Of a stretch of 64,000 nucleotides of DNA, positions 2,797 through 56,436 are shown piece by piece. The DNA lies in assembly GCA_903860135.1 (NCBI GenBank), contig CAIOPG010000006.1, positions 21,117 through 85,116 on the forward strand, in the 5' to 3' direction. The stretch comes from Candidatus Omnitrophota bacterium (GTDB lineage: Bacteria > Omnitrophota > Gorgyraeia > Zapsychrales > Fredricksoniimonadaceae). How positions within the stretch are numbered: position 1 is the stretch's first letter; every line of letters begins with the position of its first letter. The position numbers were made by a program, and so were the translations under genes. The notes beneath the pieces are model-generated. The model had not been told where the DNA came from, did no database searches, and saw only the letters and a list, made by a program, of their open reading frames with translations.

Positions 2797-4293
2797 TTGG
2801 ATACTATGACGCATAAATATAAAAAGTACATTACGATCTCGATCAACCCGGCCAGTGTCAAAGTGGCGCAGATCACATCCGGCGGTTTTGTGGAGAAGCT
2901 CTCCCGGCGCAGCATTTCAGGCGGGGCGGTGGATGCCGTATTACGCGATGCGTTGACAGGGTTTCAGACACGGCAGGCTGGGATCGTATGTGTGATCCCC
3001 GGTGATGTGGCCACTACAAAATTCCTGGATGTTCCTGCCGTTGACAATGACGAGATAGATGCCATCCTTGCTTTGCAGGCGTCGCGCCATACGCCATTTA
3101 GTAAGGACGAGATTTTGACCGGTTACGTCAAGATCCGTTCCCCGCGTGCGAATTTTACCAGCGTTCTTCTGGTGGTGGTTAAACGTCAGATCGTCAAGGA
3201 AAAGATCGCTGTTATGCGTATGGCGGGGCTGGAAGTTGCCGCTGTCACATTTGTGCCCGAAGGGGTAGCCCGTCTTTACGCGCAAGCACTTAATTTTCGC
3301 AAAAATGGTTCTGCTTTTATTGTTGATGTGGATGTGCAGAACACGCATTTTGTTATTTTGGCCGAAGGGACGGCTGTTATGGCGCGCAGTATCCCTGTCG
3401 GGATCGAACAGCTCAAGGCTGATCCGGCCACTGTCGCGAGGATCGCGGCCGAGGCAAAGGCATCAGTTGATGCCTTTGTCCAGGAGGGTGGGGTTCGTCC
3501 GGCCAGGCTTATCCTGACATCCGATCATCCTGCCTTGACAGCCCTGAGCGATCCACTGGCAGAAGCCCTTTTGCTGAAAGCAGAATATTTGCCTTATCAG
3601 AATTTAGCCAAGGGCTTCCCTGGCATGAAACAGCAGATCAACAGGGATTATATTGATGATACCGCCCTTGACGTTCTTGCGGCGGGGGTAACAATACAAA
3701 AGTGCGCAGCTGAACTTTTGCCGCAGGATCTGAAGGATCAGCGGATGGTCGCTGAAAAAGGCGGCGAAACCATGAAAGCAGGTATTCTTGTCCTGATGGC
3801 GTTCCTTTTCATCGGCGCGGGGCTTTTGAGCCGTGTTTATTTCAAGGATCTTTTCTTCAGGCAGAATCTTGTTGAGAAATATGCAGGCCAGAAAAAAGAG
3901 GTTGATCTCCTGGAAAAGATGATCGTCAAGACGGATATTTTACATACGTATATTCAGGATCGTCAAATCCCGCTCGAGGCGATCACCGAGCTTTACAGGA
4001 TCATCCCTGAGGAAATTTATCTTTCGGGTGTCAGCATTGATGAAAAAGGTGAGGTTGCTATCCAGGGCATTTCTGAATCGATGTCACGCGTTTTCTCTCT
4101 GGTTACGGCACTTGAAGAATCGCCACTTTTTGAAAATGTCAAGACCCGGTCGACCACGGCCAGGAAAGATCGCGGTAAGGATGTCGCGGTATTTGAAATT
4201 GCGTTCAAGCTTTCGACAGCCACAAAGGATGCAGGAGTAAAAGACGATACAATCACACGGCAGGGAAACCAAGGAGCGGGCCTTGATAAGTAA
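2797..4293 (+). CDS. PilM-like actin-fold ATPase domain fused to a PilN/GspL-like transmembrane and periplasmic domain (T2SS/T4P inner-membrane assembly protein)
   Basis: N-terminal about 330 aa are PilM-like. A TM segment (MKAGILVLMAFLFIGAGLL) follows, then a PilN-like C-terminal domain. Position is inside the pseudopilin operon. Confidence 0.55.
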   Translation: MDTMTHKYKKYITISINPASVKVAQITSGGFVEKLSRRSISGGAVDAVLRDALTGFQTRQAGIVCVIPGDVATTKFLDVPAVDNDEIDAILALQASRHTPFSKDEILTGYVKIRSPRANFTSVLLVVVKRQIVKEKIAVMRMAGLEVAAVTFVPEGVARLYAQALNFRKNGSAFIVDVDVQNTHFVILAEGTAVMARSIPVGIEQLKADPATVARIAAEAKASVDAFVQEGGVRPARLILTSDHPALTALSDPLAEALLLKAEYLPYQNLAKGFPGMKQQINRDYIDDTALDVLAAGVTIQKCAAELLPQDLKDQRMVAEKGGETMKAGILVLMAFLFIGAGLLSRVYFKDLFFRQNLVEKYAGQKKEVDLLEKMIVKTDILHTYIQDRQIPLEAITELYRIIPEEIYLSGVSIDEKGEVAIQGISESMSRVFSLVTALEESPLFENVKTRSTTARKDRGKDVAVFEIAFKLSTATKDAGVKDDTITRQGNQGAGLDK

Positions 4294-4909
4294 ATTTATT
4301 TCCGGGCTTTCTTCAAATGAACGCAAGATACTTACGGTCGCGTCCTTGTTTGTTCTTTTTGCTCTTTTCGACAGGCTTCTGGTGGGGCCTTCGTTGGGCC
4401 GGATGAAAGAACTCGACGAAAGCATCGCCAAAGAAGAAGATACTGTCCGCAGGAATCTTCGTTTTCTGGGTTACAAGGAGCGCATTGTCGGGCAAGCGGC
4501 CGCTTTCCGTGATTTCTATACGCAAGAGGTGCGCAGTGAAGATGAGGTTATTGCGGATTTCCTGAAAAAGATGGAAGGCATGGGATCGCAGGCGCAGGTT
4601 ACCTTGTCGAAGATATCGCCTGCCGGTCAGGAAGCGCAGAAGGATTATATCAAATATTTTGTGACCATGGATTGTACGGGCAAGCTTGAGAATCTCATGA
4701 CTCTTGTCTATACGATCAACAATGCGCAGGAATTGATCAAAGTTGAGAAAGTCAGTTTTTCCGGCAATTCGCGCGGAGCTGATACCGTCCAGGCTAACCT
4801 GACGGTTTCCAAAATGATCATCGGCGTAGATCCTTCCGTCGAAGCCAAAGCCCTTGTGCATGAAAAAGAGGTTGTCAAGGCCGAGGTCAACGCGGACATG
4901 GCAAAATGA
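4283..4909 (+). CDS. GspM/PilO-like bitopic inner-membrane assembly protein
   Basis: N-terminal TM helix and about 180 aa periplasmic domain. Overlaps the upstream gene by 11 nt. Called by context; direct similarity is weak. Confidence 0.4.
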   Translation: MISKFISGLSSNERKILTVASLFVLFALFDRLLVGPSLGRMKELDESIAKEEDTVRRNLRFLGYKERIVGQAAAFRDFYTQEVRSEDEVIADFLKKMEGMGSQAQVTLSKISPAGQEAQKDYIKYFVTMDCTGKLENLMTLVYTINNAQELIKVEKVSFSGNSRGADTVQANLTVSKMIIGVDPSVEAKALVHEKEVVKAEVNADMAK

Positions 4910-5700
4910 TCCCCTTCTGGCACCGGGCTTTTGCCTTGTGCGTCCTTTTTTTATGGGTATCCTCTGTTTGTGTTTCTGCCCTTCCATTAAGCCGGGAACA
5001 GTTATTTCAGCTGGCCACCATCGCGGCGGGAGAACATCAATTCGAACGTGCCATTGAACTTTTTCAGAAGGTCATTGAGAAAGAGCCTGCGTTCGCGCCA
5101 GCTTATAACGGGATCGGGCTTGTTCATCAATCAGACGAGAATGGTTCGATGGCTGAAGCGCTCCGCTATTTCAGGCTCGCTGTTGACATAGATCCGCAAT
5201 ACATTGAAGGTTGGAATAATCTGGGGCGTACATATTATACCCAAGGGAGTTTTGTAGAAGCGGAGCAGGCTTTTTTGTCCTCACTGCGCCTGAAACCCGG
5301 GCAAACAGATATTGAATTTTCCCTGGGCTGGGATTATCTTCTGGGGCAGTCCCGTCCAGATGAGGCCATTGATTATTTTGATAAAGTGATCGCGCATCAG
5401 GATAATCCCATGATCTATTACGGGATGGGGCTGGCGAATCTCCTTAAAGGCGATCGGTTAAAAGTGATCGAGGCTGTGACGCAATTACGCCGCCACCAGC
5501 GGGAAGAACAGGCTGTCCGCCTTGAAACCATGCTCAGGGAAAATGTCCTGATCAATTCCAAACCGGGGTTGCCATTGGTGACGGGTACGAAAGAGGATGA
5601 GTCATTGTTTGATCGTCAGCTTAAAGAGCTTGAGGCTAAAGGGTATAATGGCCAGGGTAAGGAAGGTATCAAGGTTCGTCTGAAAGGACCTTTATTGTGA
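4906..5700 (+). CDS. Secreted TPR-repeat protein
   Basis: Signal peptide then TPR-like repeats (AYNGIGLVH..., GWNNLGRTYYTQGSFVEA...). ATGA overlap with the upstream gene. Confidence 0.55.
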   Translation: MIPFWHRAFALCVLFLWVSSVCVSALPLSREQLFQLATIAAGEHQFERAIELFQKVIEKEPAFAPAYNGIGLVHQSDENGSMAEALRYFRLAVDIDPQYIEGWNNLGRTYYTQGSFVEAEQAFLSSLRLKPGQTDIEFSLGWDYLLGQSRPDEAIDYFDKVIAHQDNPMIYYGMGLANLLKGDRLKVIEAVTQLRRHQREEQAVRLETMLRENVLINSKPGLPLVTGTKEDESLFDRQLKELEAKGYNGQGKEGIKVRLKGPLL

Positions 5701-6836
5701 AGAAGAACTTTATCGTCTGTGTTGCGCTGGGGACGCGTCCTGAGGCTATCAAGCTTGCGCCTGTGATCATGGCCTTGCGTGCCACCTCGGGGGTCACGGT
5801 GCGCGTGCTTGTCACGGGACAGCACCGTGTCATGATGGACGAGGCGCTGGCGGTGTTTGGCATCACCCCTGATCATGATCTGAATATTATGCGTAAAGGC
5901 CAGGCCCTGTTTGATGTCACCGCACGTATCCTTCAGGGGGTGCCGCGCGTCCTGGCGCAGGAACCGGTTGACCTGATGGTCGTTCAGGGGGACACGGCGA
6001 CCACCTTTGCCTGTGCCCTGGCGGCGTATTATCACCGTATCCCGGTGGCGCATGTTGAGGCGGGGTTACGGACGGGAGATAAATACAGGCCTTTTCCTGA
6101 AGAAGTAAATCGGCGTTTGACCGGTGTCCTAGCAGACCTTCATTTTCCGCCAACGCCGCAAGCAGAGCAGGCACTCTTGCGCGAAGGGGTTGCCCGTCAG
6201 CGGGTGATCATGACCGGCAATACGGTGGTCGATGCGCTTCGCCAGGCGGCCGTGGCCAAACAAGGTTTTACGCATCCGCTATTGAAGACACTCGATGCGT
6301 CTGGCCGCAAGCTGGTGCTGGTGACCTTGCATCGGCGGGAGAGTTTCGGTGATGGGTTGCGCCAGGTCCTGCTGGCCTTGCGGGATATCAGCGTACTGCC
6401 CGGCGTGGATGTGGTGTATCCGGTGCATTTGAATCCGCAGGTGCGCGCGCAGGTCAAGGAAACGCTGGCCGGCGGGAAGGTGCATCTCCTGGAACCTTTG
6501 ACGTATGATCAATTTATTCTTTTGATGAAGAAAGCGCGCGTGATCGTGACGGATTCAGGCGGTATTCAGGAAGAGGCTTGCGCGTTAAGAAAGCCGGTGC
6601 TTATCACCCGTGAGACAACGGAACGCCCGGAGGCTGTCGCGTCGGGGTTTGCGGAACTGCTTGGGTTTGACCGCCCCCGCATTACGGCTGCCGCTGAGCG
6701 ACTCCTGACAGATGAAAAATATTACCGTGAACGCACGCGCCATGTGAATCCTTTCGGTGACGGAAAAGCGTCTGTACGTATCGCCAAGGCGTGTTTGAGT
6801 TACCTTAAAGAAAATCAATCCCGAGGTAAAATATGA
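5697..6836 (+). CDS. wecB: UDP-N-acetylglucosamine 2-epimerase (non-hydrolysing)
   Basis: Motifs VALGTRPEAIKLAPV, VTGQHR, HVEAGLRT, DSGGIQEE. GTG start overlaps the TPR gene stop (GTGA). Confidence 0.9.
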   Translation: MKKNFIVCVALGTRPEAIKLAPVIMALRATSGVTVRVLVTGQHRVMMDEALAVFGITPDHDLNIMRKGQALFDVTARILQGVPRVLAQEPVDLMVVQGDTATTFACALAAYYHRIPVAHVEAGLRTGDKYRPFPEEVNRRLTGVLADLHFPPTPQAEQALLREGVARQRVIMTGNTVVDALRQAAVAKQGFTHPLLKTLDASGRKLVLVTLHRRESFGDGLRQVLLALRDISVLPGVDVVYPVHLNPQVRAQVKETLAGGKVHLLEPLTYDQFILLMKKARVIVTDSGGIQEEACALRKPVLITRETTERPEAVASGFAELLGFDRPRITAAAERLLTDEKYYRERTRHVNPFGDGKASVRIAKACLSYLKENQSRGKI

Positions 6837-7528
6837 TATCCATTGTCGTTCCTGCGTATAACGAAGAAGAGGTTATTGTGCGTTTCCTGGAAGCATGTGT
6901 CCGGGACATCCGGCGCGACCTGCCTTTTGAGATCGTGGTCGTCAATGACGGCAGCCGTGATAATACGCGTGAACTGGTGCGCGGGTTTACGGCCAAGTAC
7001 GCGTTCATCCGTCTCGTGGACCACGAGGTCAACCGTGGCCTGGGGAAGGCACTGGAAACCGGCATCGCGGCGGCGCGCGGGGATGTTATTGTCACCATGG
7101 ATTCAGACCTGACCCATCCGCCGGCCATGATCCGTGAATTGGCAGCCGGCCTCAAGGATGCGGATATCTGCATCGCATCACGTTATGTGAAAGGCGGCGG
7201 CATGAAGGATGTCCCTGCCTGGCGCGTGTGGGTCAGCCGTTTGGCGAACTATCTGTTCGATCTGATCTTCTGGACGAACATCAAGGATCTTTCTTCCGGT
7301 TTCAAGGCATACCGCGCCCAACATCTGAAGAAGGCGCCGATCATGTCCAACGGATTCGAGTGCCAGATGGAGATCATGCTTTATTTTATCAAGAACAAAC
7401 TGCGTTCGCGTGAAATCCCGCTCATGCTCAAGAACCGTGAATTTGGCACGTCCAAGTTCCAGTTTGTCAAGATGGGGATGAAGTATGTGCGCAGCCTCAA
7501 GCGTTTCCTCGTCTACCGCTGGTCATGA
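6833..7528 (+). CDS. GT2 polyprenyl-phosphate sugar synthase (DPM1/ArnC/GtrB-like)
   Basis: Motifs ISIVVPAYNEEE, VVNDGSRDNT, DSDLTHPP. ATGA overlap with wecB. Confidence 0.85.
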   Translation: MISIVVPAYNEEEVIVRFLEACVRDIRRDLPFEIVVVNDGSRDNTRELVRGFTAKYAFIRLVDHEVNRGLGKALETGIAAARGDVIVTMDSDLTHPPAMIRELAAGLKDADICIASRYVKGGGMKDVPAWRVWVSRLANYLFDLIFWTNIKDLSSGFKAYRAQHLKKAPIMSNGFECQMEIMLYFIKNKLRSREIPLMLKNREFGTSKFQFVKMGMKYVRSLKRFLVYRWS

Positions 7529-7529
7529 T

Positions 7530-9182
7530 ATGAACCGGCCTGTTTTTTCATGGTTGACGGTGAGATCTTTTCAGATCGGGCTTATTGCCCTCGGGTTGGT
7601 GTTGCGCTGCATTCATTACGTCGAGAACCGCTCGTTCTGGCAGGATGAGCTATGCCTGGCGCTGAGCATTGTCAACCGTTCGTTCACGGAAATATTCCAT
7701 AACACCCTTCTTTTTCCTGATTTTGCCCAAGCACCGCTGTTGTTTCAATTCATGGTAAAGATCTTTGCCGGTGTGTTCGGCAACAATGAAATGGCACTCC
7801 GGTTTTTTCCGTTTGTGACCGGGGTCGCCGCGCTTTTCCTTGCCCGGCGTTTTTTTAATCGCCTGCTGGCACCCATCCCTGCCACCCTGGCGCTAGGCCT
7901 TTTCGCCCTGGCCGAACCGCTTGTTTATTTTTCAGCAGAACTCAAACCGTACGGCGTTGATGTTTTTGCGGCGTTGTTGGTGTATGAAATGTTTTTTGCC
8001 TTGAAGGAACGCTGGACATTGCGGCATTTGGCTGTTTTTATGGCGGGTGGAGCCTTGGTGATCTGGCTGTCGAATGCCATGCTCTTTATTCTTGCCGGAG
8101 CAGGGCTTGTGTTCGGCCTTGATCATCTGAAGCGGCAGGAATGGTCTAAAGTGCGTCAGCTGGCGATGGCTTATGGTCTATGGCTGGTTAGTTTTTTAAT
8201 CTTGTACAAGGTTTCGTTGAGCGGGATGCTCAATCATGACCTGGTGAGGAACTGGCGTCTGGCAGGCGGGTTTTCGCCCGAACCTGCGTTCTCGTTGGGC
8301 TGGCTGGTGTGGATCGCCAAGGCTTTTCTGGATATGTTCCGTTCACCCTTAGGGCTCGGCTGGACGGGGTTGATGGCGGTCTTCTTCTTCTGCGGTTGCT
8401 GGTTTATTTATCGCCGGGACAGGTTGCTTCTGTGGCTATTAATGGCACCGCTCTTGCTGGTGTTGTCGGCTGGTGCTTTCGACAAGTACCCCTTCTTTGA
8501 ACGACTAGTTCTTTTCCTTGTGCCCGCCGTGCTTGTCATCCTAGCTGAGGGTGTCTGTGGCGTTGCTTTTTCCAGGGTCTGGCAGGGGCGGGCCTGGGGG
8601 TCATGGATCGTTATAGCCGCTGTCCTGTGGTATCCTGTGTCGGCGGCGGCCTGGCAGGCGGTGCATCCGCGCGGGCATGAAGATAACCGTGCGGCCATGC
8701 AGTACCTGACAGATCATTACCGCCCAGGTGACATGGTGGCGATAAGCCCTCAAGCCCAGTATCCATTCTGGTATTACAGCCAGCGCATGGGGCTCACCAG
8801 CCGTTTGCCGATGCATCCGGCGGGGGCATCGGGAGAGCGCGTGACACCCGTGATCCAGCTGTTTCCTGATATTGTGCCTGAATCTGGGCAGGAGATGCTC
8901 GCGTTGCGCCAGACCCTCAGTGTGTATGATGCCGCCGGTTATTATCGTTCTTTCCGGCTGGCTGGGCGCTCGAGTGCCCCTTTGTTTGTCCCCGCGGCAT
9001 CGCCCGCGATCCTCAAAGGCATGGGCCGGGTATGGGTCTTCTTGTCGCATCACAATAATGCCCGTTACCCGTTATTTGTGGATCAGGTGTTTTCACGTGC
9101 CGGAGAGCGGCTGGATTACTTCGAACGGCCTGGTGTTTGTGTTGGCCTTTATGACGTTCCTTTGGCCGATAAGAAAAAGTAA
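7530..9182 (+). CDS. Polytopic GT-C glycosyltransferase of the ArnT/PMT (COG1807-like) family with a C-terminal periplasmic domain
   Basis: More than 10 predicted TM helices. A QDE motif lies in the first loop after TM1. Sits 1 nt after the GT2 stop. ATG at the MNRP codon was chosen over the upstream in-frame ATG at 7485, which overlaps the GT2 gene. Confidence 0.6.
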   Translation: MNRPVFSWLTVRSFQIGLIALGLVLRCIHYVENRSFWQDELCLALSIVNRSFTEIFHNTLLFPDFAQAPLLFQFMVKIFAGVFGNNEMALRFFPFVTGVAALFLARRFFNRLLAPIPATLALGLFALAEPLVYFSAELKPYGVDVFAALLVYEMFFALKERWTLRHLAVFMAGGALVIWLSNAMLFILAGAGLVFGLDHLKRQEWSKVRQLAMAYGLWLVSFLILYKVSLSGMLNHDLVRNWRLAGGFSPEPAFSLGWLVWIAKAFLDMFRSPLGLGWTGLMAVFFFCGCWFIYRRDRLLLWLLMAPLLLVLSAGAFDKYPFFERLVLFLVPAVLVILAEGVCGVAFSRVWQGRAWGSWIVIAAVLWYPVSAAAWQAVHPRGHEDNRAAMQYLTDHYRPGDMVAISPQAQYPFWYYSQRMGLTSRLPMHPAGASGERVTPVIQLFPDIVPESGQEMLALRQTLSVYDAAGYYRSFRLAGRSSAPLFVPAASPAILKGMGRVWVFLSHHNNARYPLFVDQVFSRAGERLDYFERPGVCVGLYDVPLADKKK

Positions 9183-9261
9183 AACGCAACGCCTTTGCCT
9201 TGTTTTTGAGAAAGCACGTTGTGTTTGGTATAGCGAATTAAAAATTGTTCCCCCGTGTGCC

Positions 9262-9290
9262 TTGAAAACCCCATTAGTATATGGTATCTT
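9262..9290 (+). promoter_or_regulatory. Putative sigma70 promoter with an extended -10: TTGAAA, 17-nt spacer, TGgTATCTT
   Basis: -35 TTGAAA at 9262-9267. TGnTATCTT at 9282-9290. Contains the recurrent TATATGnTAT(C/A)TT motif. Confidence 0.35.
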
Positions 9291-9307
9291 TTCCTTTGTG
9301 AAGAAAG

Positions 9308-9414
9308 TCTAAGGGCAAACTACTTGAAAAAGTAGGGCGCAAAGCCGTGAGCCTGAACCCGTCGTGTTGCGGGAAGGTTGTCTGGTTGCCGATGTGAGTA
9401 CGTTAACTCACGGC
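9308..9414 (+). promoter_or_regulatory. c-di-GMP-I (GEMM) riboswitch aptamer candidate
   Basis: AAGGGCAAACuacuuGAAAAAaguagGGCGCAAAGCCgugaGCCUGAACC...GUUGCCGAUG closely parallels the Vibrio Vc2 aptamer GGGCAAACcauucGAAAgagugGGACGCAAAGCCuccgGCCUAAACC...GUUACCGAUGG. A GNRA-type hairpin is present. The outer stem gccgugag/cucacggc closes the element. Confidence 0.6.
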
Positions 9415-9446
9415 AAAACCCTTCGATCTTTTCGAAGGGTTTTTTC
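9415..9446 (+). terminator. Intrinsic terminator serving as the riboswitch expression platform
   Basis: Stem cccttcga/tcgaaggg (9419-9426 and 9432-9439), 5-nt loop, then a run of six T. Lies 54 nt upstream of the 9500 start codon. Confidence 0.7.
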
Positions 9447-9499
9447 ATTTCAGGGGGTTTCCCTGAGGTGGCGCCCTGCATGCATAGGAGGTCTGGCAT

Positions 9500-11140
9500 A
9501 TGGGGCGTTATTTATCGATAACCTTTGCGGCTACAGTCGCAATTATTTCTTTATTTCCTTTACATAATGTTGCGGCGAGGGAAGATATTCCTATGATGAT
9601 GCCGCAGGAACAACCCATGATGCCATTCCCTTATCAAATGCCCGTTAATCCTGGTGTGCCTGTGCCGGCAACGGGGTCTGTTGTGCCGTTGCCCGTGCCT
9701 GTGTTGCCCAAGGGGGATGCCCTGGTTGCCTGGATGGCGTCTAATGTCAGTTCCAAGACAGGCATGTTTTTCAGTTTTCAGGTCTTACCTGAAGAAAAAG
9801 CCGAGATCTACGGTGCCATGGGCGAGGCTTCTTCTGTGCCCGGGATCGTTGAACGCACCATTGTCGAAGAAGGGCTGGATATTTACGATGGCGCTGTCGG
9901 GCAGATCGCGTTGACCGTTGCCGGCGGGGAGGATAAATTAGCAGTGGCCAGGCATCAACTGGATGTGTACTGGTCAGGAAAATTGGAGAGCCTGATCAGT
10001 ATCCGGGCAGGGTATCCTAATTATAATTTTGTTTATGATCCCAAAGATCCGGAGGTCGTGACGTCGTTGCTGACAGACGAGGGCCGGCGCGGATTTATTT
10101 TTCGTATCATCAATGCCAATGGCAACTACCTGGTGCGGGATCCCTTGGACGGCAAGGAACGGATGGCGGGTTTCCCGGAAGCACCGGATCTACACTGGGA
10201 AGACTGGAAGCCGGTTGCCGGAGAGAATGCCTGGATCGTGATCGCGGCCATGCAGTTGTATCACAAAGAGTATTATAAAGCGGATGTGGATCAATACGTT
10301 GCGCCTGAAGGACCTGTCGAACTGCGCCTTGCCGAAGAATTGGCGCGTGCGGCCATGGTCCTGCAATCGGAGACCGGCGGCATAAGGATGGCACCGATAG
10401 GGACGTACCGTGAGAATGAATTTTATTCAACGTCCACCCAGGGCCAGTGGTGGTACAACCAGATTTCGACAGAGAATAATCTTTCCTGGTACAGCGCGTT
10501 CCGGATGCTGTACCGTGTGACCAGCAAAGAGATCTATCTCCAGGCGATGCAGAAGATGGCAGGTTTCTTCAAGCAGGTTTATGATCCGGTAACGCAGACT
10601 TTTTATCAGGGGATGACCTATAAAGCAGGTGTCTGGCAGGTGAACAGCTCGAATTTTGCGGTGGATGTGCAGACCTGGGGTATTTTATCGCTCGGCGCGG
10701 CTACCATTGAAGACTGGTTCGGAGAGGGCGTTGCCTATTCATTCTGGGCGAAGGCGCGGGAATATTCGGGCACCTGTAATGATCAAGGCTTATTGATGGG
10801 CGTGGGGTATACCAAAGAAAAAGGCCGTGTTTCTGTGGAGTGGAGCGCAGGGGCGATCATGGCGGCGCGTGAACTGGCGGTATTCTATCGTAATTCCCAT
10901 CGTGAACTGGCGCAGGCCGCGGGGCACGATGCGGAGCAGATGCGTGTCGGCATGGAATTACTGCGCCGCGACCTCCCGGGAGGCCAGTCTGCTTATGCCT
11001 ATTCATCCAAACGCGGCTGGATCCCTTTTGGCTGGAATTCGCATGACCCGCGTGTCGTCAGCCTGGCGTCGACCGGTTGGATGTTCTTTGTTGACAAGAA
11101 ATTTAATCCTTTTTGGCTCGATGGCAAAGGCCAGGACTGA
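9500..11140 (+). CDS. Secreted hypothetical protein with a Pro/Met-rich linker; possibly an (alpha/alpha)-barrel polysaccharide-active enzyme (weak)
   Basis: Signal peptide MGRYLSITFAATVAIISLFPLHNVAA. AGGAGG RBS. Trp/Tyr-rich motifs (WWYNQISTENNLSWY, AWIVIAAMQLY). No confident family assignment. Confidence 0.7.
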   Translation: MGRYLSITFAATVAIISLFPLHNVAAREDIPMMMPQEQPMMPFPYQMPVNPGVPVPATGSVVPLPVPVLPKGDALVAWMASNVSSKTGMFFSFQVLPEEKAEIYGAMGEASSVPGIVERTIVEEGLDIYDGAVGQIALTVAGGEDKLAVARHQLDVYWSGKLESLISIRAGYPNYNFVYDPKDPEVVTSLLTDEGRRGFIFRIINANGNYLVRDPLDGKERMAGFPEAPDLHWEDWKPVAGENAWIVIAAMQLYHKEYYKADVDQYVAPEGPVELRLAEELARAAMVLQSETGGIRMAPIGTYRENEFYSTSTQGQWWYNQISTENNLSWYSAFRMLYRVTSKEIYLQAMQKMAGFFKQVYDPVTQTFYQGMTYKAGVWQVNSSNFAVDVQTWGILSLGAATIEDWFGEGVAYSFWAKAREYSGTCNDQGLLMGVGYTKEKGRVSVEWSAGAIMAARELAVFYRNSHRELAQAAGHDAEQMRVGMELLRRDLPGGQSAYAYSSKRGWIPFGWNSHDPRVVSLASTGWMFFVDKKFNPFWLDGKGQD

Positions 11141-11258: not shown

Positions 11259-13466
11259 TTGAATATAAGAGTGATAGCGCACAGATGCTTGATGCTTTTT
11301 TTGATGCTGACTTTAGCGGCGTCAGATGTGCGTGTCTATGCGCAGGGAGTTCCCCCACCCGGCACCCGCCTGGCCTTGAGCCCTGTTTTCGCGCCGCCGC
11401 TACTCAAGGGCATCAAGGTGTTCCGCAACGATCCTTTTCGTTTTGATTTCATTTTGGATAAGGGGGATGTCCATCAACCGCTGCCCAGCGAACTTGAAAT
11501 AAAGCGCCTGATCAAATACTTCCTCGCTTCTTTGACGGTGCCCGAGAAAGATTTGTGGGTCAATTTAAGCCCTTATGAAAAAGACCGCATTGTGCCCGAA
11601 GCCTTTGGCCAGACCGAAATGGGGCGTGACTTACTGGCTCAAGACTACATTCTCAAACAGATAACAGCGTCAGTGATTTATCCTGATGAAAAAGTCGGCA
11701 AGGAATTTTGGTCTAAAGTCTATGCCGAAGCTCAGAAACGCTACGGCACCACCGACATCCCCGTCGACACTTTCAACAAAGTCTGGATCACCCCCGCTAA
11801 AGCCACCGTCTACGAACACCAAGACGCCGCCTATGTTGTCGAATCCAGGTTAAAGGTCATGTTGGAGTCCGATTATAAAGCCGCTATAGAAAATAAGGAA
11901 TTCGCACGTAGGGGCGGGTCCGTGACCCGCCCTATTTTATTAAATACGCCCCCAGCGTCACCCGCCCCCGCCGCAGCGTGGGGCGGGCATGGGAGGGGGG
12001 ATGACATCGCCAAACAAGTCCTCCGCGACGTCATCATCCCTATCCTCAACAAAGAAGTCAACGAAGGCCAAAACTTCGCCACCCTGCGCCAGGTCTACAA
12101 TTCCCTTATCCTTGCCACTTGGTATAAGCGTAAAGTCAAAACCAGCATCATGGGCAAGGCGTACGTCGATCAGAAGAAAGTTTCTGGCATTGACATCGCC
12201 GACAAGAACGAAAAAGAAAAGATCTGGTCTCAATATGTTGAAGCTTTCAAGAGGGGTGCTTTTAATCTGATCAAGGAAGAGAAAGACACGACGACTCAAG
12301 AAATGATCCCGCGGCAGTATTTTTCCGGTGGGGCGGATATGTCGATGGAGGTTTTTGAGGTAACAGATGCGGCCATGCCAGCAGAGGTAAATATTGATAA
12401 TTGCAGTATCGTAAATGTTGATGGGGGTATGCTGTTAGTGAATTCCGGTCTATCTAATCGCAAATGGGTAACAACTGATTTATTTGAACACAATCCACGG
12501 AAGTTTATGTATTCTGTAAAAATGTCTGGCCTTGCCAGGCTATTAAAACCACCAGCACAAGGCGATCCAATTTCGTATTCACTTGCTTTGATCAGTGATA
12601 GTTATTTGAAAACATTTAATCGAGGTGGTGGTGGCAATGTTGGATTAGTCTTTGATTTTGCGGATGAGGATGTTCTGGCAATTTTGGCATCGATGAACGA
12701 TATCGCGGCCTTTGATAAGACAGAGGAGACGCAACGTGAATTCATTAAAAAACAATTAAAACGTGATCCTAGTAATGTTATGTATCAAACTATTGTTGAC
12801 AATAGTCCTCCTAGGCAGCTTGCTATTGTGCCTGAAGAATTGATTAGGGCTTCAATCAAGGCAGGAAATAAGAATAATGAAGTAATTGTTAAGAATAATT
12901 TAACTCTGCAACCTAAAGCAATTATCTTGATTGTAAGGTGTCAGGGAGGATCACGTTTGTTTCGGGAAGATGTCGATGCCTTAAAGGTTAATCCAATGTT
13001 AAGTGAGGTCTATTCTGCAATGACAGCTGGGAAATTACCAGTTGTTATTGTCGGTGAAAATGGTTCCCCATTGAAGACTGCTAGGAGAATCTTTAAGCAT
13101 ATGTTTAGGGATCTTCAGGAAACAAGACCGTTCTTTTTTGAAAAGAAGTCTGGCCCATCGCCGGCAAAGTCCGGGTTTATAGGATGGATCGGTGTGTTCG
13201 TGAAGCAAAATCCTTCTGCTATTACACGTATAGATCGTGGCCAGAAGAATAGTGACAATGCCGAGAAGCTTGGCGGTATCGACCTTGATCCGGCCAAGAT
13301 CGACTTAAGTACAAAGAATTCCGGCGGCGAAATTGCGTTCAACCTCGACCCCGCGATGCTCGCCCGTATGCAGCATGCTTCTGGGATTTCGCCTGTTATT
13401 GTCAGTGTGCACCCGATGGAAAGCCTTTCGGCATTTCTGGGGATTGTGAAGCCGGGAGGGCGGTAG
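11259..13466 (+). CDS. Secreted protein of an uncharacterised paralogous family (paralog A, 735 aa)
   Basis: Signal peptide ending VYAQ. A roughly 300-aa N-terminal domain is highly similar to the 54826 gene (LIKYFLASLT, EEDLWVNLSPYE, GTTDIPVDTFNKVWIT, LKVMLESDY, EVNEGQNFA, PR.YFSGG). The last about 40 aa also match (DPAMLARMQ / DPIMVAEFQ). The central and C-terminal portions are AT-rich. TTG start; GTG at 11271 or ATG at 11292 are alternatives. Confidence 0.8.
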   Translation: MNIRVIAHRCLMLFLMLTLAASDVRVYAQGVPPPGTRLALSPVFAPPLLKGIKVFRNDPFRFDFILDKGDVHQPLPSELEIKRLIKYFLASLTVPEKDLWVNLSPYEKDRIVPEAFGQTEMGRDLLAQDYILKQITASVIYPDEKVGKEFWSKVYAEAQKRYGTTDIPVDTFNKVWITPAKATVYEHQDAAYVVESRLKVMLESDYKAAIENKEFARRGGSVTRPILLNTPPASPAPAAAWGGHGRGDDIAKQVLRDVIIPILNKEVNEGQNFATLRQVYNSLILATWYKRKVKTSIMGKAYVDQKKVSGIDIADKNEKEKIWSQYVEAFKRGAFNLIKEEKDTTTQEMIPRQYFSGGADMSMEVFEVTDAAMPAEVNIDNCSIVNVDGGMLLVNSGLSNRKWVTTDLFEHNPRKFMYSVKMSGLARLLKPPAQGDPISYSLALISDSYLKTFNRGGGGNVGLVFDFADEDVLAILASMNDIAAFDKTEETQREFIKKQLKRDPSNVMYQTIVDNSPPRQLAIVPEELIRASIKAGNKNNEVIVKNNLTLQPKAIILIVRCQGGSRLFREDVDALKVNPMLSEVYSAMTAGKLPVVIVGENGSPLKTARRIFKHMFRDLQETRPFFFEKKSGPSPAKSGFIGWIGVFVKQNPSAITRIDRGQKNSDNAEKLGGIDLDPAKIDLSTKNSGGEIAFNLDPAMLARMQHASGISPVIVSVHPMESLSAFLGIVKPGGR

Positions 13467-13533
13467 GCTTATTTATCCGTGTTAAACGGCAAGGGTTCAA
13501 ACGACGATAAATATGACAATTATAAGAAATCGG

Positions 13534-13591: not shown

Positions 13592-13664
13592 GGGCCTCTA
13601 GCTCATCTGGTAGAGCAAGTGACTCTTAATCACTTGGTACCGAGTTCGACTCTCGGGAGGCCCA
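13592..13664 (+). tRNA. tRNA-Lys (anticodon CTT)
   Basis: Cloverleaf folded by hand: acceptor GGGCCTC/GAGGCCC, D-stem GCTC/GAGC, anticodon stem AGTGA/TCACT with loop CTCTTAA, T-stem CCGAG/CTCGG with TTCGACT loop, discriminator A. Length 73 nt; CCA is not encoded. Confidence 0.85.
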
Positions 13665-13672
13665 CTATTTAG

Positions 13673-13708
13673 AAAAGCCGTATCCCTTTTGGGATATGGC
13701 TTTTCTAT
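13673..13708 (+). terminator. Intrinsic terminator downstream of tRNA-Lys
   Basis: 14-bp stem aaaagccgtatccc / gggatatggctttt with a tttt loop. Confidence 0.6.
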
Positions 13709-13762
13709 TTCTTGAGAGCCGACCGAGAGGAGAAGGAGCCCCGCAGGGCGACTGGAGGGCAC

Positions 13763-13781
13763 CGACTCTCGGGAGGCCCAC
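13763..13781 (+). repeat. Direct repeat of the tRNA-Lys 3' end (19 nt identical, here followed by CCA)
   Basis: cgactctcgggaggcccac at 13763-13781 equals 13647-13665 of the intact tRNA. Confidence 0.8.
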
Positions 13782-13985
13782 CATATTAACGACGAAGAAG
13801 CTTCTCTTTAACTGGGGGAGCTTTTTTGTGATCTTCCCACGAAAAAGTGGACACAACGAAGGGGTGGTGACAGTATGAGAACTAGCTCAAAAAACGGAGG
13901 TGTTCAGTGGCAGGAGAATCGAACAAGAAAAAGCAGTTTGACCGTGAATTTAAAATGTCTGCGGTCAAGACCTGATAGCTCATCT

Positions 13986-14010
13986 GTTGGAGCAAGTGAC
14001 GATTTGTCGA
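13986..14010 (+). repeat. Degenerate copy of the tRNA-Lys D-arm and anticodon stem (23/25 nt)
   Basis: tagctcatctgttggagcaagtgac versus tRNA tagctcatctggtagagcaagtgac at 13599-13623. Confidence 0.75.
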
Positions 14011-14096
14011 GTACAAGGATTATTTGCAGGATATTAGTGAGGCCTCTTTTACAATCTCTTCTTGAGATTGTTGAGCAATAAAAATCATTTCCCCCC

Positions 14097-14125
14097 TTGC
14101 ATTTTCCATAAATAGAGAGTATATT
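14097..14125 (+). promoter_or_regulatory. Putative sigma70 promoter (TTGCAT, 17-nt spacer, TATATT)
   Basis: TTGCAT 14097-14102. TATATT 14120-14125. Confidence 0.45.
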
Positions 14126-14132
14126 TAAAACA

Positions 14133-14319
14133 TAGACAAGGTCTCACTGAGTTGTAAGACCTAACACGGCCGAACAGGCCGTGACATTTATCGGGCAAGG
14201 TTGTCCGTAAATATAAAGTATAGAAGCTTTAGATATAGTCCTGCAAAGGGCTGGCCCAAAAGGGCGGAAGACAAAGACGTCTTCAATTCATCATCAATGA
14301 ATTGAAGACGTCTTTTTTT
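14133..14319 (+). ncRNA. Candidate small structured RNA or leader of about 190 nt (promoter to strong terminator), function unknown
   Basis: Bounded by the 14097 promoter and the 14274 terminator. Internal perfect hairpins ggtctcactgagttgtaagacc and cacggccgaacaggccgtg. No convincing ORF. Confidence 0.35.
14274..14319 (+). terminator. Strong intrinsic terminator
   Basis: 18-bp perfect stem aagacgtcttcaattcat / atgaattgaagacgtctt, loop catca, then a T run. Confidence 0.75.
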
Positions 14320-14500
14320 GTTTCAATGTTGAAAATCGGCAGAAGGTTTCAAATCAGATAAATGGAGGATCTATGGGGAAAGTAAATTGTTTGGGAAGGG
14401 ATTCGCCTTCTGGAGGGAGGTCGTAGCATTGTTGGGCGTGTGTTGTTTTAATAGGGAAGGTAGAAAACAAATCAAAGGTCAATAACAAAGGAGTAATCAC

Positions 14501-31699: not shown

Positions 31700-32751
31700 A
31701 AAATATTGTTATCATCGGCCATGCGCCGGCAGCTCATGCGGCTATTTTGGCCATACTCGCGCGTGATCCGTCGACGGCCATTACCCTGATCAGCTGTGAC
31801 GGGAATCTTCCGTATGACCGTATGCTTTTGCCCGGGTTGATCGATCGTTCTGTCGCGGAAAAGAATATTTATTGCGCGCCGGTGGATTTTTATCAATCCG
31901 CCCGCATTCAGCTTGTGCTGGATAAGGAACTTTCACGCATTAATTTTGATCGCAAACGCGTCTTTACGGTCGAGGCTCCTGTGCCCGGTCGAGGCCCCGG
32001 CGCAAGGCTTCAGGTTGATTACGACGGTTTGATCATCATGGATGCTCCAGAAATAAGGCTTCCGGCCCTCAAAGGGGTACGCCGTCAGGGAGTGTTCCAC
32101 CTGGCGCGCCTCGAATCGGTTAGAAGTTTGATCCGTTATCTGGCGCTTACGGAAACGGTGGTGATCGAATTTTCAGGTTTTGCCGGTGTGCGGGCAGCGC
32201 TGGCACTCAGGTCTGCCGGCAAGGAAGTCATTGTGGCGGTGCGGCAAGACAGTCTCCTGCCGGATATTCTCGACGAAGGCCGTGCCGGCATGCTGGTGCG
32301 GGGTCTTGGCGCGCGCGGGGTGCGCCTTCTGCCGTCAGGCGGCGGGATCTCGGATATCATTGGTGAAGCCGAGGTGAAAGCGGTGCGGTTTGCTTCGGGT
32401 AAGGTCGTGGCGTGCGATATGGTTGTCCTTGAAGATGTGTCGGCTGACCTGCGTTTTCTTGATGATGCGGCGGTGGGAGTATCCGGGCGCATGGTTGTTG
32501 ATGATGCCTTTCGGACTTCTTTTGCGGATGTGTTTGCCATCGATGCTGTCTGTCAGGCAGATCAATTGAAATTGATGGGTGGATATGGCGTGGATACCAT
32601 GGCCGGCTGTGCTCAGGCCGTGACCGCCGTAGCAGGATTGTGCGATGAAGCAACGGGTTTGCCTGGATCGGGTTTTGGCCAGCGCGATATGCTCGATGCT
32701 TTTTTTCACCCGCAGGAATTGAACTTTCTTTGCCAGGAGGTTGTTCTCTGA
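31696..32751 (+). CDS. FAD-dependent pyridine nucleotide-disulfide oxidoreductase family protein
   Basis: N-terminal dinucleotide-binding IVIIGHAPAAHAA and a second Rossmann region VVIEFSGFAGVRAA. Confidence 0.6.
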   Translation: MKNIVIIGHAPAAHAAILAILARDPSTAITLISCDGNLPYDRMLLPGLIDRSVAEKNIYCAPVDFYQSARIQLVLDKELSRINFDRKRVFTVEAPVPGRGPGARLQVDYDGLIIMDAPEIRLPALKGVRRQGVFHLARLESVRSLIRYLALTETVVIEFSGFAGVRAALALRSAGKEVIVAVRQDSLLPDILDEGRAGMLVRGLGARGVRLLPSGGGISDIIGEAEVKAVRFASGKVVACDMVVLEDVSADLRFLDDAAVGVSGRMVVDDAFRTSFADVFAIDAVCQADQLKLMGGYGVDTMAGCAQAVTAVAGLCDEATGLPGSGFGQRDMLDAFFHPQELNFLCQEVVL

Positions 32752-33692
32752 TGGCCAGGACATTGTTTTTTTTATTTTTATTCTTTCCTTCCTTGTGTTT
32801 TGCGATTGAATCTCCAGGCCCATTGGAAATGCAAGATGCCTTGGCTTATCGTGCCCGTGGCGACGAACTCCAAGGGCAGGAGTCCTGGGGGCGGGCTCTC
32901 TTCTATTACGAACAAGCCGAGGCTTCGTTCCTTGCTGACGCTTCTTTTTTTAACGACAAGGGCGTGCTCTTGGAACATCTCGGGAGGATCAAAGAAGCGG
33001 AAGAATGTTATTTAAAGGCGATTGAATTGGATTTCAAATGTTTGCCGGCGTACAGCAACCTCGGTTATATGTATAAAAATCAGAAAAAGTATGATTTGTC
33101 TGCGCAATATTTCAGCAACCGCGTGCAGTATGGGAATCCAAGAGATCCCTGGATACTTGTGGCTCAGCAGGAACTTGAGAAACTTGGGTATCATTTACCG
33201 GCATTACATCAACAGCGAATGCAGAAAGAATGTGGCATCCTTGAAAATGAGCTTGTATTTCAGAAAGCTTTGCCAAAGATAGACGAAAGTCGTAAAGCAT
33301 ACGTCAGTGCTGAGATCGAATATCAGCTTGGTGTAAATTTCTTCAATGTCAGGGATTATGTTGCGGCGACGGAAGCTTTTCAGGCTTGTTTAAAATCTAA
33401 TCCACGCCACAAATCTTCACAGCATTATTTGGCACGCATTAAAGATCTTGAAGCTAGGTATCCTTCTTTAATGAAACCTGTTTTGCCGGAGATTAAGAAT
33501 ACAGACAATGCTACTGATAGGGCTATGGATAAAGCTGTTATTATTGCCACGGGTGAGTACAAGAAAGGTCTGGCGCAGATGCGGTTGGGGCGTTACACGG
33601 ACGCGGCCAAGGCTTTTGAGCTGGCGTTAGCCTTTACTCCAGATAATATTTATATCCAAGCGGCGCTTGCCCAAGCCCGTAAGGGGCGTTGA
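32730..33692 (+). CDS. Secreted TPR-repeat protein
   Basis: Signal peptide then multiple TPR-like repeats. Confidence 0.55.
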   Translation: MPGGCSLMARTLFFLFLFFPSLCFAIESPGPLEMQDALAYRARGDELQGQESWGRALFYYEQAEASFLADASFFNDKGVLLEHLGRIKEAEECYLKAIELDFKCLPAYSNLGYMYKNQKKYDLSAQYFSNRVQYGNPRDPWILVAQQELEKLGYHLPALHQQRMQKECGILENELVFQKALPKIDESRKAYVSAEIEYQLGVNFFNVRDYVAATEAFQACLKSNPRHKSSQHYLARIKDLEARYPSLMKPVLPEIKNTDNATDRAMDKAVIIATGEYKKGLAQMRLGRYTDAAKAFELALAFTPDNIYIQAALAQARKGR

Positions 33693-46179: not shown

Positions 46180-46351
46180 CTTATAGCCGATAAAGGTAAA
46201 CCCGGGGAAACCCGGGGACACAAAGCGACAGACCTAATGTGCGCCATCGGGTAGTTGGGTGAAGGTGTTGATGGGGTTTTGTGGTTGGCGTAAGATGGTG
46301 GCTGCGTTGCCGAAGCGCGAGGGGAGATTCCCCAGCTTTTATCGGCTATAG
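46180..46351 (+). promoter_or_regulatory. Second c-di-GMP-I (GEMM)-like structured RNA candidate, with no obvious downstream gene
   Basis: GGUAAACccgggGAAAcccgggGACACAAAGCgacagaCCUAAu...CGGGUAGuUgGG...GUUGAUGG parallels the Vc2 motif blocks. A 15-bp outer stem pairs cttatagccgataaa with tttatcggctataag. The insertion is larger than in the canonical aptamer. Confidence 0.45.
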
Positions 46352-54724: not shown

Positions 54725-54825
54725 GTTTTCGTCATTATTTTCTCAAATTAGATTAGTTGTCATTCGCCCAAAAAAATTTGGCTGAAAGAAATTTTCTTTC
54801 AAGTTATTTAATAAAAGGGGAAGAT

Positions 54826-56436
54826 ATGGTACAAAAAACGCTAACCTTTCGCTGGATCTCAATCTGGGTTTTGGTGAGTTTTCTGGCCACCGCCGTGATC
54901 CCGCCCAAAGTGTACGCGCAGGCACTGAACCTGCCGGCGCCCGGGGCTATGGTGGGGTTGACCCCGGCGTATGTGCCGATCCTGATGAAGGGCGTGCGGG
55001 TGCATCCCGAGAATCCGCTTCTTTTTGATTTTATTGTGGACAGCGGGAAATCAAATTTTAAAGCAGAAAGCCCGGCGTTCAAGGCGGAGTCACAGAAGCT
55101 CATCAAGTATTTCTTGGCGTCGTTGACCATCAAGGAAGAAGATCTTTGGGTTAATTTAAGCCCGTATGAAAACAACCGCATCATCCCGCAGGTACTGGGC
55201 AAGACCGAGATGGGCCGCGATATGCTGGCGCAGGATTATATCCTCAAGCAATTGACCGCTTCGCTTATATATCCCGAGAAGGACCTGGGCAAGGCGTTCT
55301 GGAACCGGATCTACACCAAAGCCAAGGAACAGTTTGGCACAACCGATATCCCGGTCGATACCTTTAACAAAGTCTGGATTACCTCCGACAAGGCAAAAGT
55401 CTTTGAACGCAACAATGTCGCTTATATCGTCGGCGCGCACCTGAAAGTCATGCTCGAATCCGATTATCAAGCTGCGCAGGCTGTTGGCGTGCGTACAGGT
55501 GATCCTGTTATCACACCCGCCCCCGCCGCAGTGTGGAGAGGGCAAGGGAGGGGGGCGTCAGAAGAACTTGCCAAACAGGTCATCCGCGACGTCGTCATCC
55601 CCGAGATCGAAAAAGAAGTCAACGAAGGCCAGAATTTTGCAATGCTGCGCCAGATGTTCTATTCGATGATCCTCGCCTCTTGGTACAAGCTCGCTTTGAA
55701 AGATGCCCTGTTGAATCAGGTGTACAGTAATAAAGATAAAACCAGCGGGGTTCTCTCCGATGACCCGGCGGTAGCCACCAAGATCTACGAACAGTACCTG
55801 CAGGCGTATAAGAAAGGCGTGTTCGATTACATCAAAGAAGATATGGACGCTGTCACCCATGACCCTCTGCCCAGAAAGTATTTCTCGGGGGGGGTCGTTG
55901 ATTTGGCTAGCAAGGTGGAAGTTGAACGTCAGTCGGGTCGTTTGAATCTGACGGAAAATACCCAGCTCATATCTTCAGTATTCCTTTTGATGGTAAAGTT
56001 TTCGTCGGTGTTGGGAGGGCGTCTTTCATTGGCCAAACATTTGTCTTTGGTTGCGCTGATGACGGGTCTGTTCGCATGTCAGCCTGCTGTCCAGCCTCCG
56101 GCTGATCTTTTCTATGATTTAAGTAATTCCGACTTGATTACTTACCCTATTCAACTTGCGCCTGCCGATGCTACAAGGGTCTTTGTTCCCTTCAAGGTGG
56201 ATCATTCTGCGGATGTCGGTGGTATCGCGCTCAATGGGAAGCTGATGGACTTGGATGTGGCCAAAGACGGGAAGGGCGTTGAGATGAAATTCGATCCGAT
56301 CATGGTGGCGGAGTTTCAGCGGGGAAATTTTACGGGGGTTGAGGGGGTTATCCTCAATATTGTTCCGATGGTCAGCCCCTTATCGTTGTTGGGTCTGGAT
56401 AAAGCTTCGGTGGAGTTGGTGTCGGCCAAAGGGTGA
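54826..56436 (+). CDS. Secreted protein of the same uncharacterised paralogous family (paralog B, 559 aa)
   Basis: Signal peptide ending VYAQA. N-terminal about 300 aa are highly similar to the 11259 gene, with nucleotide identity around 70-80% in conserved blocks. The C-terminal tail is also similar. The gene is 31 nt upstream of tpsA. Confidence 0.8.
   Translation: MVQKTLTFRWISIWVLVSFLATAVIPPKVYAQALNLPAPGAMVGLTPAYVPILMKGVRVHPENPLLFDFIVDSGKSNFKAESPAFKAESQKLIKYFLASLTIKEEDLWVNLSPYENNRIIPQVLGKTEMGRDMLAQDYILKQLTASLIYPEKDLGKAFWNRIYTKAKEQFGTTDIPVDTFNKVWITSDKAKVFERNNVAYIVGAHLKVMLESDYQAAQAVGVRTGDPVITPAPAAVWRGQGRGASEELAKQVIRDVVIPEIEKEVNEGQNFAMLRQMFYSMILASWYKLALKDALLNQVYSNKDKTSGVLSDDPAVATKIYEQYLQAYKKGVFDYIKEDMDAVTHDPLPRKYFSGGVVDLASKVEVERQSGRLNLTENTQLISSVFLLMVKFSSVLGGRLSLAKHLSLVALMTGLFACQPAVQPPADLFYDLSNSDLITYPIQLAPADATRVFVPFKVDHSADVGGIALNGKLMDLDVAKDGKGVEMKFDPIMVAEFQRGNFTGVEGVILNIVPMVSPLSLLGLDKASVELVSAKG

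Follow-up and report, generated by a model that had tools for sequence, protein, structure and literature searches.

Within the 64,000 nucleotides analysed here (the window), which belong to a Candidatus Omnitrophota bacterium (assembly GCA_903860135.1, contig CAIOPG010000006.1, positions 21,117 to 85,116), lies an open reading frame (ORF), ORF A, with the composition of a sandwich: an AT-rich central insert stands between two normal ends. The insert corresponds to a variable region, here called the cargo; the ends correspond to two conserved modules, the N-domain and the C-module, here called the scaffold. In our judgement the AT-rich block is probably a cargo cassette with a history separate from that of the scaffold, reassorted via the conserved modules and present in a state of lower GC3 (GC content at third codon positions). 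The gene and its parts, with positions in the product given in amino acids (aa), are:

11259..13466, plus strand: ORF A of the ORF list, 735 aa, TTG start; a modular, predicted exported protein of a multi-copy Omnitrophota family
11259..11342, plus strand: predicted Sec signal peptide (aa 1-28), read by eye from the sequence and alignments
11346..12332, plus strand: conserved N-domain (aa 30-358), terminating in PRxYFSGG; GC 0.51 and GC3 0.60, host-like
11910..11999, plus strand: hypervariable Pro/Ala/Gly-rich loop within the N-domain (aa 218-247); GC locally 0.62-0.64
12351..13238, plus strand: AT-rich block, the variable cargo region (codons 365-660); GC 0.396 and GC3 0.324, from breakpoint and codon-usage tests
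12456..13148, plus strand: folded cargo domain (aa ~400-630), a rare alpha/beta domain of ~230 aa with a predicted ADP-ribosyltransferase (ART)-like fold
12489-12491 (H411), 12576-12581 (Y440/S441) and 12879-12881 (E541), plus strand: candidate catalytic residues in the cargo
13149..13262, plus strand: A-specific linker (aa 631-668), missing from the relatives P0002 and P0003 in the alignment; AlphaFold2 (AF2) pLDDT <50
13263..13463, plus strand: conserved C-terminal module (aa 669-735); GC3 0.63, host-like; AF2 pLDDT ~80-86

The hand counts from which an earlier note on this DNA had sensed the shift were borne out, 12421-12540 having 40.8% GC and 12721-12780 33.3%. The background of 55-60% that it assumed was an overestimate: the window has 52.5% GC, the N-domain of ORF A 51.0%. 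The note had also extended the AT-rich portion from the centre to the C-terminus. The central part stands, the C-terminal part does not, since the last ~75 codons (13239-13463) are compositionally normal. The shift inside one ORF is real. A maximum-likelihood fit of two breakpoints to the third-codon positions divides the gene into three segments, whose GC3 is 0.604 up to codon 364, 0.324 from codon 365 to 660 (nt 12351-13238) and 0.627 from codon 661 to 735; the log-likelihood gain is 29.0, as compared to a maximum of 10.5 among 100 permutations. The support intervals of the breakpoints are codons 360-379 and 597-668. Both breakpoints (codons 365 and 660) match module borders, i.e., the motif YFSGG at aa 354-358 and the C-module beginning at aa ~669.

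By sliding-window GC and codon usage the dip in ORF A is the most extreme of the window. Among all 64 bins of 1 kb, 12001-13000 is the lowest in GC (41.6%), and the lowest 15 of 746 GC3 windows of 250 codons all fall within ORF A. Such windows in the 42 other genes, which serve as the host reference, have a GC3 of 0.623 +/- 0.052 and do not go below 0.428. The mean codon log-likelihood of the cargo is -1.27, that of the host windows -1.063 +/- 0.053 (minimum -1.183).

Of course, a protein rich in Lys, Asn and Ile may be encoded by AT-rich DNA for no other reason than its amino acids. The cargo is in fact somewhat rich in these three residues, and GC1 declines slightly from N-domain to cargo, from 0.54 to 0.49. 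GC2, however, hardly moves (0.37 to 0.36), while GC3 falls from 0.60 to 0.32. At host codon usage the amino acids of the cargo predict a GC of 0.504, whereas 0.396 is observed; for the N-domain 0.512 is expected and 0.510 observed. About 95% of the GC drop is synonymous, and because it lies almost wholly at synonymous sites, amino-acid composition, which the earlier note had named as a possible refutation of the compositional mosaic, fails to explain the dip. A copy of the same cargo in another locus (L085, see below), moreover, has a GC3 of 0.553. We consider this explanation extremely improbable.

A database search with the whole protein yielded more than 3,338 significant matches. Those that carry a name are nearly all hypothetical proteins of metagenome-assembled genomes (MAGs) of 'Candidatus Omnitrophota/Omnitrophica'. 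Among the matches listed, only P0002 and P0003 cover the full length, apart from the self-match; the others, of 440-1,290 aa, cover ~45-55% of the query, which is its N-terminal half. Compared by BLAST with the 120 top matches listed, the N-domain is found 120 times and the C-module 106 times, the middle of A only three times, the self-match included. The N-domain of A (aa 30-358) is 70-77% identical to that of the closest of the listed family members, and an alignment of 121 N-domains has 39 invariant columns. In the loci fetched, a profile of the N-domain matches 101 ORFs, and the C-module is present in 75; 80 loci came from scanning the species representatives of GTDB, with at least 8-9 copies within single MAGs. 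By their cargo, the 90 members whose N-domain is complete sort into 75 clusters, 63 of which contain a single member. As judged from these alignments, the family has a common architecture: an N-terminus that resembles a signal peptide, a highly conserved N-domain of ~330 aa with PRxYFSGG at its end, a variable middle and a conserved C-module of ~65 aa.

What follows the N-domain in the relatives is diverse. Pfam recognises GNAT, several families of SAM-methyltransferases, histidine phosphatase, PPDK_N, zeta toxin, NAD-epimerase, TPR, radical SAM, HATPase_c, GDSL, CheR, FHA, protein kinase, NUDIX, GT2 and ART-PolyVal. For ORF A itself, for its middle alone and for its paralog B (see below), no Pfam or NCBIfam family was found at E<=1. 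The N-domain has no detected relative among solved structures, searches of PDB sequence profiles with family and cargo profiles gave spurious matches only, and for the scaffold family we found neither a description in the literature nor a Pfam/NCBIfam model. To this extent the family is undescribed.

Some details of the scaffold deserve mention. The TTG start of ORF A yields the N-terminus MNIRVIAHRCL..., in agreement with MNIRRFIHKFL... of the homolog P0006; the start annotated for P0001, the identical protein in public assemblies, is 11 codons further downstream. In the predicted signal peptide LMLFLMLTLAA forms the hydrophobic core, and its end, VYA followed by QG, is kept family-wide. The consensus of the C-module is GGIDLxPxxIDL...F(N)xDPAML..Q.A.G..PVI...P..SL..FLG. 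We rejected GGIDL as a repeated junction or cleavage motif between modules, for a protein normally has a single copy of it, at the C-module. The hypervariable loop of the N-domain (aa 218-247) shows indels and no conservation in the alignments, with AF2 pLDDT <50 over aa 224-244. A motif in it, PAPAA(A/V)W.G.GRG, is common to A and B, and P0005 has the related SPSWGGTGRG. The N-domain of L085 contains, at aa ~290-440, two copies of a ~30-aa insert, GHVA(S/P)FANVSP.PLPSEL.LN.KA. Another stretch of the N-domain, DDIAKQVLRDVIIPILNKEVNEGQNFATLRQVYNSLILATWYKRKVK (11976-12155, aa ~240-300; also in L001 and L007), has a nucleotide identity of 0.89-0.93 across genomes and paralogs; its third-position identity at identical residues is 0.83-0.89, well above that of the remaining N-domain. 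Gene conversion may lie behind this conservation, or a hot spot of recombination, or a signal embedded at the nucleotide level.

Do scaffold and cargo have separate histories? The earlier note had spoken of a region horizontally acquired or cassette-like, grafted onto a conserved domain. The cassette is strongly supported; a recent horizontal acquisition is not, as diverged relatives with the same cargo also dip in GC3. Among distinct members, 39 pairs with the most similar N-domains (78-87.5% aa identity) have zero similarity in their cargo, and such pairs occur even within one MAG (L001/L005 and L007/L008 of ELA167). Along them, identity is 0.8-1.0 through the N-domain and reaches background within one 30-codon window past YFSGG. 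Conversely, A, P0002/L001 and P0003/L004, which share the same cargo architecture, have N-domains that are mutually only 71-76% identical, and each has a higher N-domain identity to a paralog with other cargo (L001-L005 86.8%, L004-L014 83.8%, A-L007 79.2%). The best N-domain matches of A, L007 (79%) and P0004 (77%), both carry other cargo; its best C-module match is L085. The identities to A differ from module to module:

L085: N-domain 63%, cargo 49%, C-module 79%
P0002: N-domain 76%, cargo 50%, C-module 47%
P0003: N-domain 71%, cargo 51%, C-module 50%
P0004: N-domain 77%, cargo none, C-module 58%

In two pairs the cargo is closer than the scaffold (L012/L023, 76% vs 67%; L015/L018, 67% vs 62%), although the scaffold is normally the slower-evolving part. 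Synteny is absent between the locus of A, those of L001 and L004, and the P0121 contig. Because N-domain, cargo and C-module rank the relatives discordantly, and because some pairs share cargo above scaffold, the alignments show reassortment of modules within the family. They fit a moving cargo as well as a homogenisation of N-domains; either way, it is recombination at the module boundary.

The cargo of A is rare. An exhaustive phmmer search with the middle region alone (A aa 359-630) found it in only 16 clusters among 1.84 billion representative proteins, which makes this cargo, predicted to be ART-like, a new and rare domain family. A metagenome scan with four cargo sequences yielded two loci only, one of them new; phages and plasmids gave no match. 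The domain occurs in the same scaffold beside other cargo, in P0123 (2,235 aa; with GNAT, methyltransferase and LysM), P0127 and P0134, and in the scaffold of P0121/L085, where a guanylate-kinase-like domain comes next, as a second cargo in the position of the A-specific linker. It also lies inside proteins of 4,600, 5,383 and 1,677 aa, all three tested and all devoid of the N-domain, and makes up stand-alone proteins of 271 and 396 aa. Since it is present in other scaffolds, in giant proteins and on its own, the cargo is an autonomous, mobile domain.

Its 15 aligned copies share the motifs W.TTD..HDP..F.Y.VK, YYS.SLIS, IGL..DFPDEDVLAVL, NNE[IV][IV]V.N and LPVVIVGE. In NNE the Glu is invariant; the Ser of YS is nearly so, and the His (HDP/HNP) is conserved. 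In A the candidate residues H411, Y440/S441 and E541 are spaced by ~30 and ~100 residues, a register defined at the level of sequence; E541 stands at the opening of a beta-strand. The spacing resembles that in CteC, a type III effector of Chromobacterium violaceum (PDB 8ux2) that ADP-ribosylates Thr66 of ubiquitin with the catalytic motif R65-S97-E220 (PMC10810742), the likeness being one of sequence positions only. The differences are not small: identity is 12%, a relationship is not detectable at the sequence level, the first motif residue of the cargo is His instead of Arg, more in keeping with the H-Y-E class, and the cargo has an additional C-terminal alpha/beta part (LPVVIVGE). In our reading the cargo is rather likely to be an ART-like effector or toxin-type enzyme, and it may have ADP-ribosyltransferase activity. 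Pfam, which finds nothing on the cargo or its 14 relatives, and PDB sequence profiles lend this assignment no support.

The GC3 dip is not a peculiarity of ORF A. In 65 non-redundant members of the family that have both modules, the GC3 of the cargo differs from that of the N-domain by -0.105 +/- 0.093, the value being below zero in 89% (Wilcoxon p = 4e-11); against background GC3, the N-domain of these members deviates by -0.013 and the C-module by -0.053. The dip of ORF A, about -0.27, ranks as the 4th most extreme. With the ART-like cargo in a scaffold, the differences between cargo and N-domain GC3 are:

A: about -0.28
L001: -0.19
L004: -0.15
L085: -0.05
L087: -0.21
L088: -0.18

The dip is thus common to copies of this cargo but not intrinsic to the domain, because the L085 copy is nearly host-like (GC3 0.553, N-domain 0.601). 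There, the AT-rich one is the guanylate-kinase-like neighbour, with a GC3 of 0.445. The multi-cargo protein of L087 (Ga0073936_10000419, 3001-9708; 2,235 aa) changes stepwise along its gene, with GC3 values of 0.49 for the N-domain, 0.28 for the ART-like domain, 0.40 for GNAT, 0.29 for the methyltransferase and 0.42 for the C-module; single cassettes inside it seem to have a composition of their own.

Several of these facts weigh against a cassette brought in lately, and they lead to the most serious alternative, i.e., that nothing was transferred into ORF A and that scaffold and cargo, long linked, live under different evolutionary regimes. Constraint or GC-biased gene conversion would keep the N- and C-modules high in GC3, while a fast-evolving, locus-specific and recombination-poor cargo approaches its AT-biased mutational equilibrium by drift. 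The closest relatives of A's cargo are just 47-51% identical to it, and neither a recent transfer of this cargo nor repeats or recombination sites flanking it were found. Five of the six scaffolded ART-like copies dip (-0.15 to -0.28) at a mutual identity of 27-51%; a plain recent import still awaiting amelioration would not lead one to expect dips in such old divergences. With the dip being a general property of cargo, as the 89% above imply, and recurring in diverged relatives with the same cargo, it could be produced by a region-specific regime with no recent transfer at all. The dip also increases with host GC3: it amounts to -0.045 where the host is low in GC and to -0.153 where it is high, and cargo regressed on N-domain gives a slope of 0.60. 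A host-independent AT-biased process would yield this as well. The synonymous sites of the N-domain are unusually conserved: at third positions, genomes and paralogs share an identity of 0.45-0.89, as compared to ~0.2-0.7 in shared cargo. The regression of N-domain GC3 on the background has a slope of 0.68, and in the low-GC locus L087 the N-domain, at 0.49, exceeds its neighbouring genes (0.32-0.43). In view of the conserved synonymous sites and of L087, part of the contrast may stem from a scaffold that is held GC-rich by constraint, gene conversion or its own mobility. Yet the single-copy genes of the window have a GC3 of ~0.62 without any paralogs to convert with, so that the cargo is anomalous against everything and not against the scaffold alone. 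Inside a single genome, MJ-2014-D6_bin-075, the dips range from -0.01 to -0.31, a spread not expected under a uniform regime, and the ART-like cargo of L085 is close to its host. The discordance of the modules and the pairs with cargo above scaffold show, finally, that exchange occurs in the family. Taken on its own, we hold this alternative to be rather unlikely; it is, however, compatible with a separate history of the cargo and does not exclude it.

Two technical or local explanations carry far less weight. In metagenomic data, a family member from an organism of lower GC might have been joined to ORF A through the conserved modules. The N-domain is multi-copy and in short stretches up to ~93% identical in nucleotides across genomes, which can mislead assemblers. 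Such a chimera, however, would require two exact in-frame crossovers inside 900 bp, while a product identical to that of ORF A is recorded on five contigs from two sources, P0002 is identical in three separate assemblies with the same pattern, and the pattern is repeated in dozens of independent MAGs; an assembly artefact is therefore highly improbable. Equally remote is the idea that the AT-rich block is part of a mobile element integrated at the adjacent tRNA gene:

13592-13665: tRNA-Lys(CTT), 126 nt downstream of the stop codon of ORF A

The proximity speaks for it, and so do duplicated fragments of this tRNA, a typical scar of integration: its 3' end recurs at 13763-13784 (95%), its 5' part at 13976-14000 (92%). 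But the block lies in frame inside an ORF, is separated from the tRNA by a normal C-module and, in contrast to a tRNA-integrated island, is not bracketed by the tRNA repeats; neither an integrase nor similarity to phages or plasmids was found. The duplications, together with long hairpins at 13670-13707 and 14273-14315, the latter with a perfect 19-bp stem, look like traces left behind when something integrated or was excised at the tRNA.

ORF A is best read as a probably exported protein of three modules: a signal peptide with the N-domain, an interchangeable enzyme cargo and the C-module. N-domain and C-module are the scaffold common to thousands of Omnitrophota proteins; the cargo modules swap among such scaffolds and exist in giant multi-enzyme proteins and stand-alone genes besides. 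On this reading the mosaic composition arises from the separate histories of the two. The likely mechanism is recombination within the conserved flanking modules. The cargo would derive from, or persist in, a state of lower GC3, with the scaffold modules at or above host composition, and a foreign source of lower GC may be the cause of the AT-richness. A mechanism resembling a shufflon or a diversity-generating retroelement was considered for the cargo and rejected, flanking repeats or inversion sites not being found.

As to function, the signal peptide, read by eye, would direct the protein out of the cell, while most of the cargo enzymes need cytoplasmic cofactors (S-adenosylmethionine, acetyl-CoA, ATP, NAD+). 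Export and cytoplasmic cofactors together point to action inside another cell, much as polymorphic toxins and effectors act. N-domain and C-module might then serve as a shared carrier or recognition unit, and the cargo, ART-like in A, as the effector. We tentatively extend this picture to a phylum-wide, hitherto undescribed 'carrier-cargo' system, with a Sec-exported scaffold, cassettes from the pool of the archaeovorins, i.e., the giant proteins of this phylum (see below), recombination that leaves an AT-rich scar, and an effector arsenal against prey or host, though the odds are somewhat against so broad a scheme.

The closest known concept is that of the polymorphic toxin and effector systems, such as Rhs/YD-repeat proteins and CdiA, which reportedly goes back to Zhang, Aravind and colleagues. 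As in these systems, a conserved part common to paralogs is combined with a swapped, highly variable enzymatic part, and the repertoire of the family contains domains of toxin type (zeta toxin, ART-PolyVal, GNAT and the ART-like domain). Rhs elements classically combine an AT-rich variable tip with a GC-rich core; ORF A is the same kind of compositional mosaic. In contrast to polymorphic toxins, the variable part of ORF A is not C-terminal but internal, framed by N-domain and C-module. YD/Rhs, PAAR, LXG and haemagglutinin repeats are missing (there is no Pfam match at all), export appears to proceed via the predicted Sec signal peptide, and for much of the family's cargo (TPR, glycosyltransferase, methyltransferase, kinase) a toxic action is not obvious. 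Nor were an immunity gene or orphan cassettes found after ORF A; the genes that come next at L001, at L004 and on the P0121 contig are different in each case and not conserved. The missing immunity gene fits targets that are not kin, or just an export that is co-translational.

The other obvious comparison is with the archaeovorin-type giants. Omnitrophota have been described as host-dependent or predatory, with giant archaeovorins flanked by genes for type II or type IV pilus-like secretion (West-Roberts et al. 2023, bioRxiv 10.1101/2023.11.21.568195; 2026 preprint, 10.64898/2026.06.07.730766). The two sets of proteins share, besides the phylum, methyltransferases, glycosyltransferases, NUDIX, HATPase_c, radical SAM, TPR, PPDK_N and GNAT, and, as mentioned, the cargo domain of A is found within proteins of 4,600 and 5,383 aa. 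ORF A, however, has 735 aa and a single cargo, whereas archaeovorins have tens of thousands of aa with arrays of enzymes; it is also defined by a scaffold other than theirs. A term search in the archaeovorin papers gave no description of the N-domain/C-module scaffold.

The Omnitrophota, widespread and uncultured nanobacteria, apparently depend on a host or live as predators, and attention has hitherto been on their giant genes. An oddity of composition here leads to short proteins that form a far larger class, with over 3,300 sequences and many copies per genome. If they were delivered effectors, the family would list the ways in which Omnitrophota act on their hosts. For the shuffling of domain cassettes it offers a clean natural system, in which nucleotide composition alone separates scaffold from cargo. 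The contrast between the conserved synonymous sites of the scaffold and the AT-shifted cargo bears on how recombination shapes the GC content within genes.

The taxonomic reach of the family may be wider. The loci L027, L041, L056, L058, L060, L070, L071, L073 and L077, as well as L054 and L067, come from MAGs labelled 'uncultured Planctomycetales' or 'Candidatus Elulimicrobium', the latter being assigned by NCBI to a candidate phylum of its own. Either the family reaches past Omnitrophota or these labels disagree with the GTDB placement.

A tblastn search of the window with ORF A revealed a single paralog:

54757..56436, plus strand: paralog B, 559 aa, from tblastn, alignment and GC3

To A aa 4-358 B is 49% identical, to A aa 666-731 32%, and between these matching ends there is no similarity. 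Its middle is short (~100 aa), unrelated to that of A, and has a milder dip in GC3, from 0.66 to 0.47. Directly downstream of B is an ORF of 1,165 aa (56468-59965) without a Pfam match or similarity to ORF A.

Two c-di-GMP-I riboswitch aptamers were found in the window, at 9304-9393 and 46186-46315 (Rfam, 65.6 and 61 bits). The former precedes an ORF at 9500-11140, which encodes a 546-aa protein with a signal peptide and no Pfam match and lies directly upstream of ORF A, with a gap of 118 nt. Since ORF A is the next gene after this riboswitch-preceded ORF, it might be co-regulated by c-di-GMP. On the other side of ORF A, ~830 nt of non-coding, AT-rich DNA without a credible ORF separate the tRNA-Lys from amtB-glnB (window 13592-14500).

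A second compositional outlier is the gene at 32730-33692, with a GC of 0.451 and a GC3 of 0.445, as compared to ~0.62 elsewhere; the lowest GC3 windows outside ORF A are due to it.

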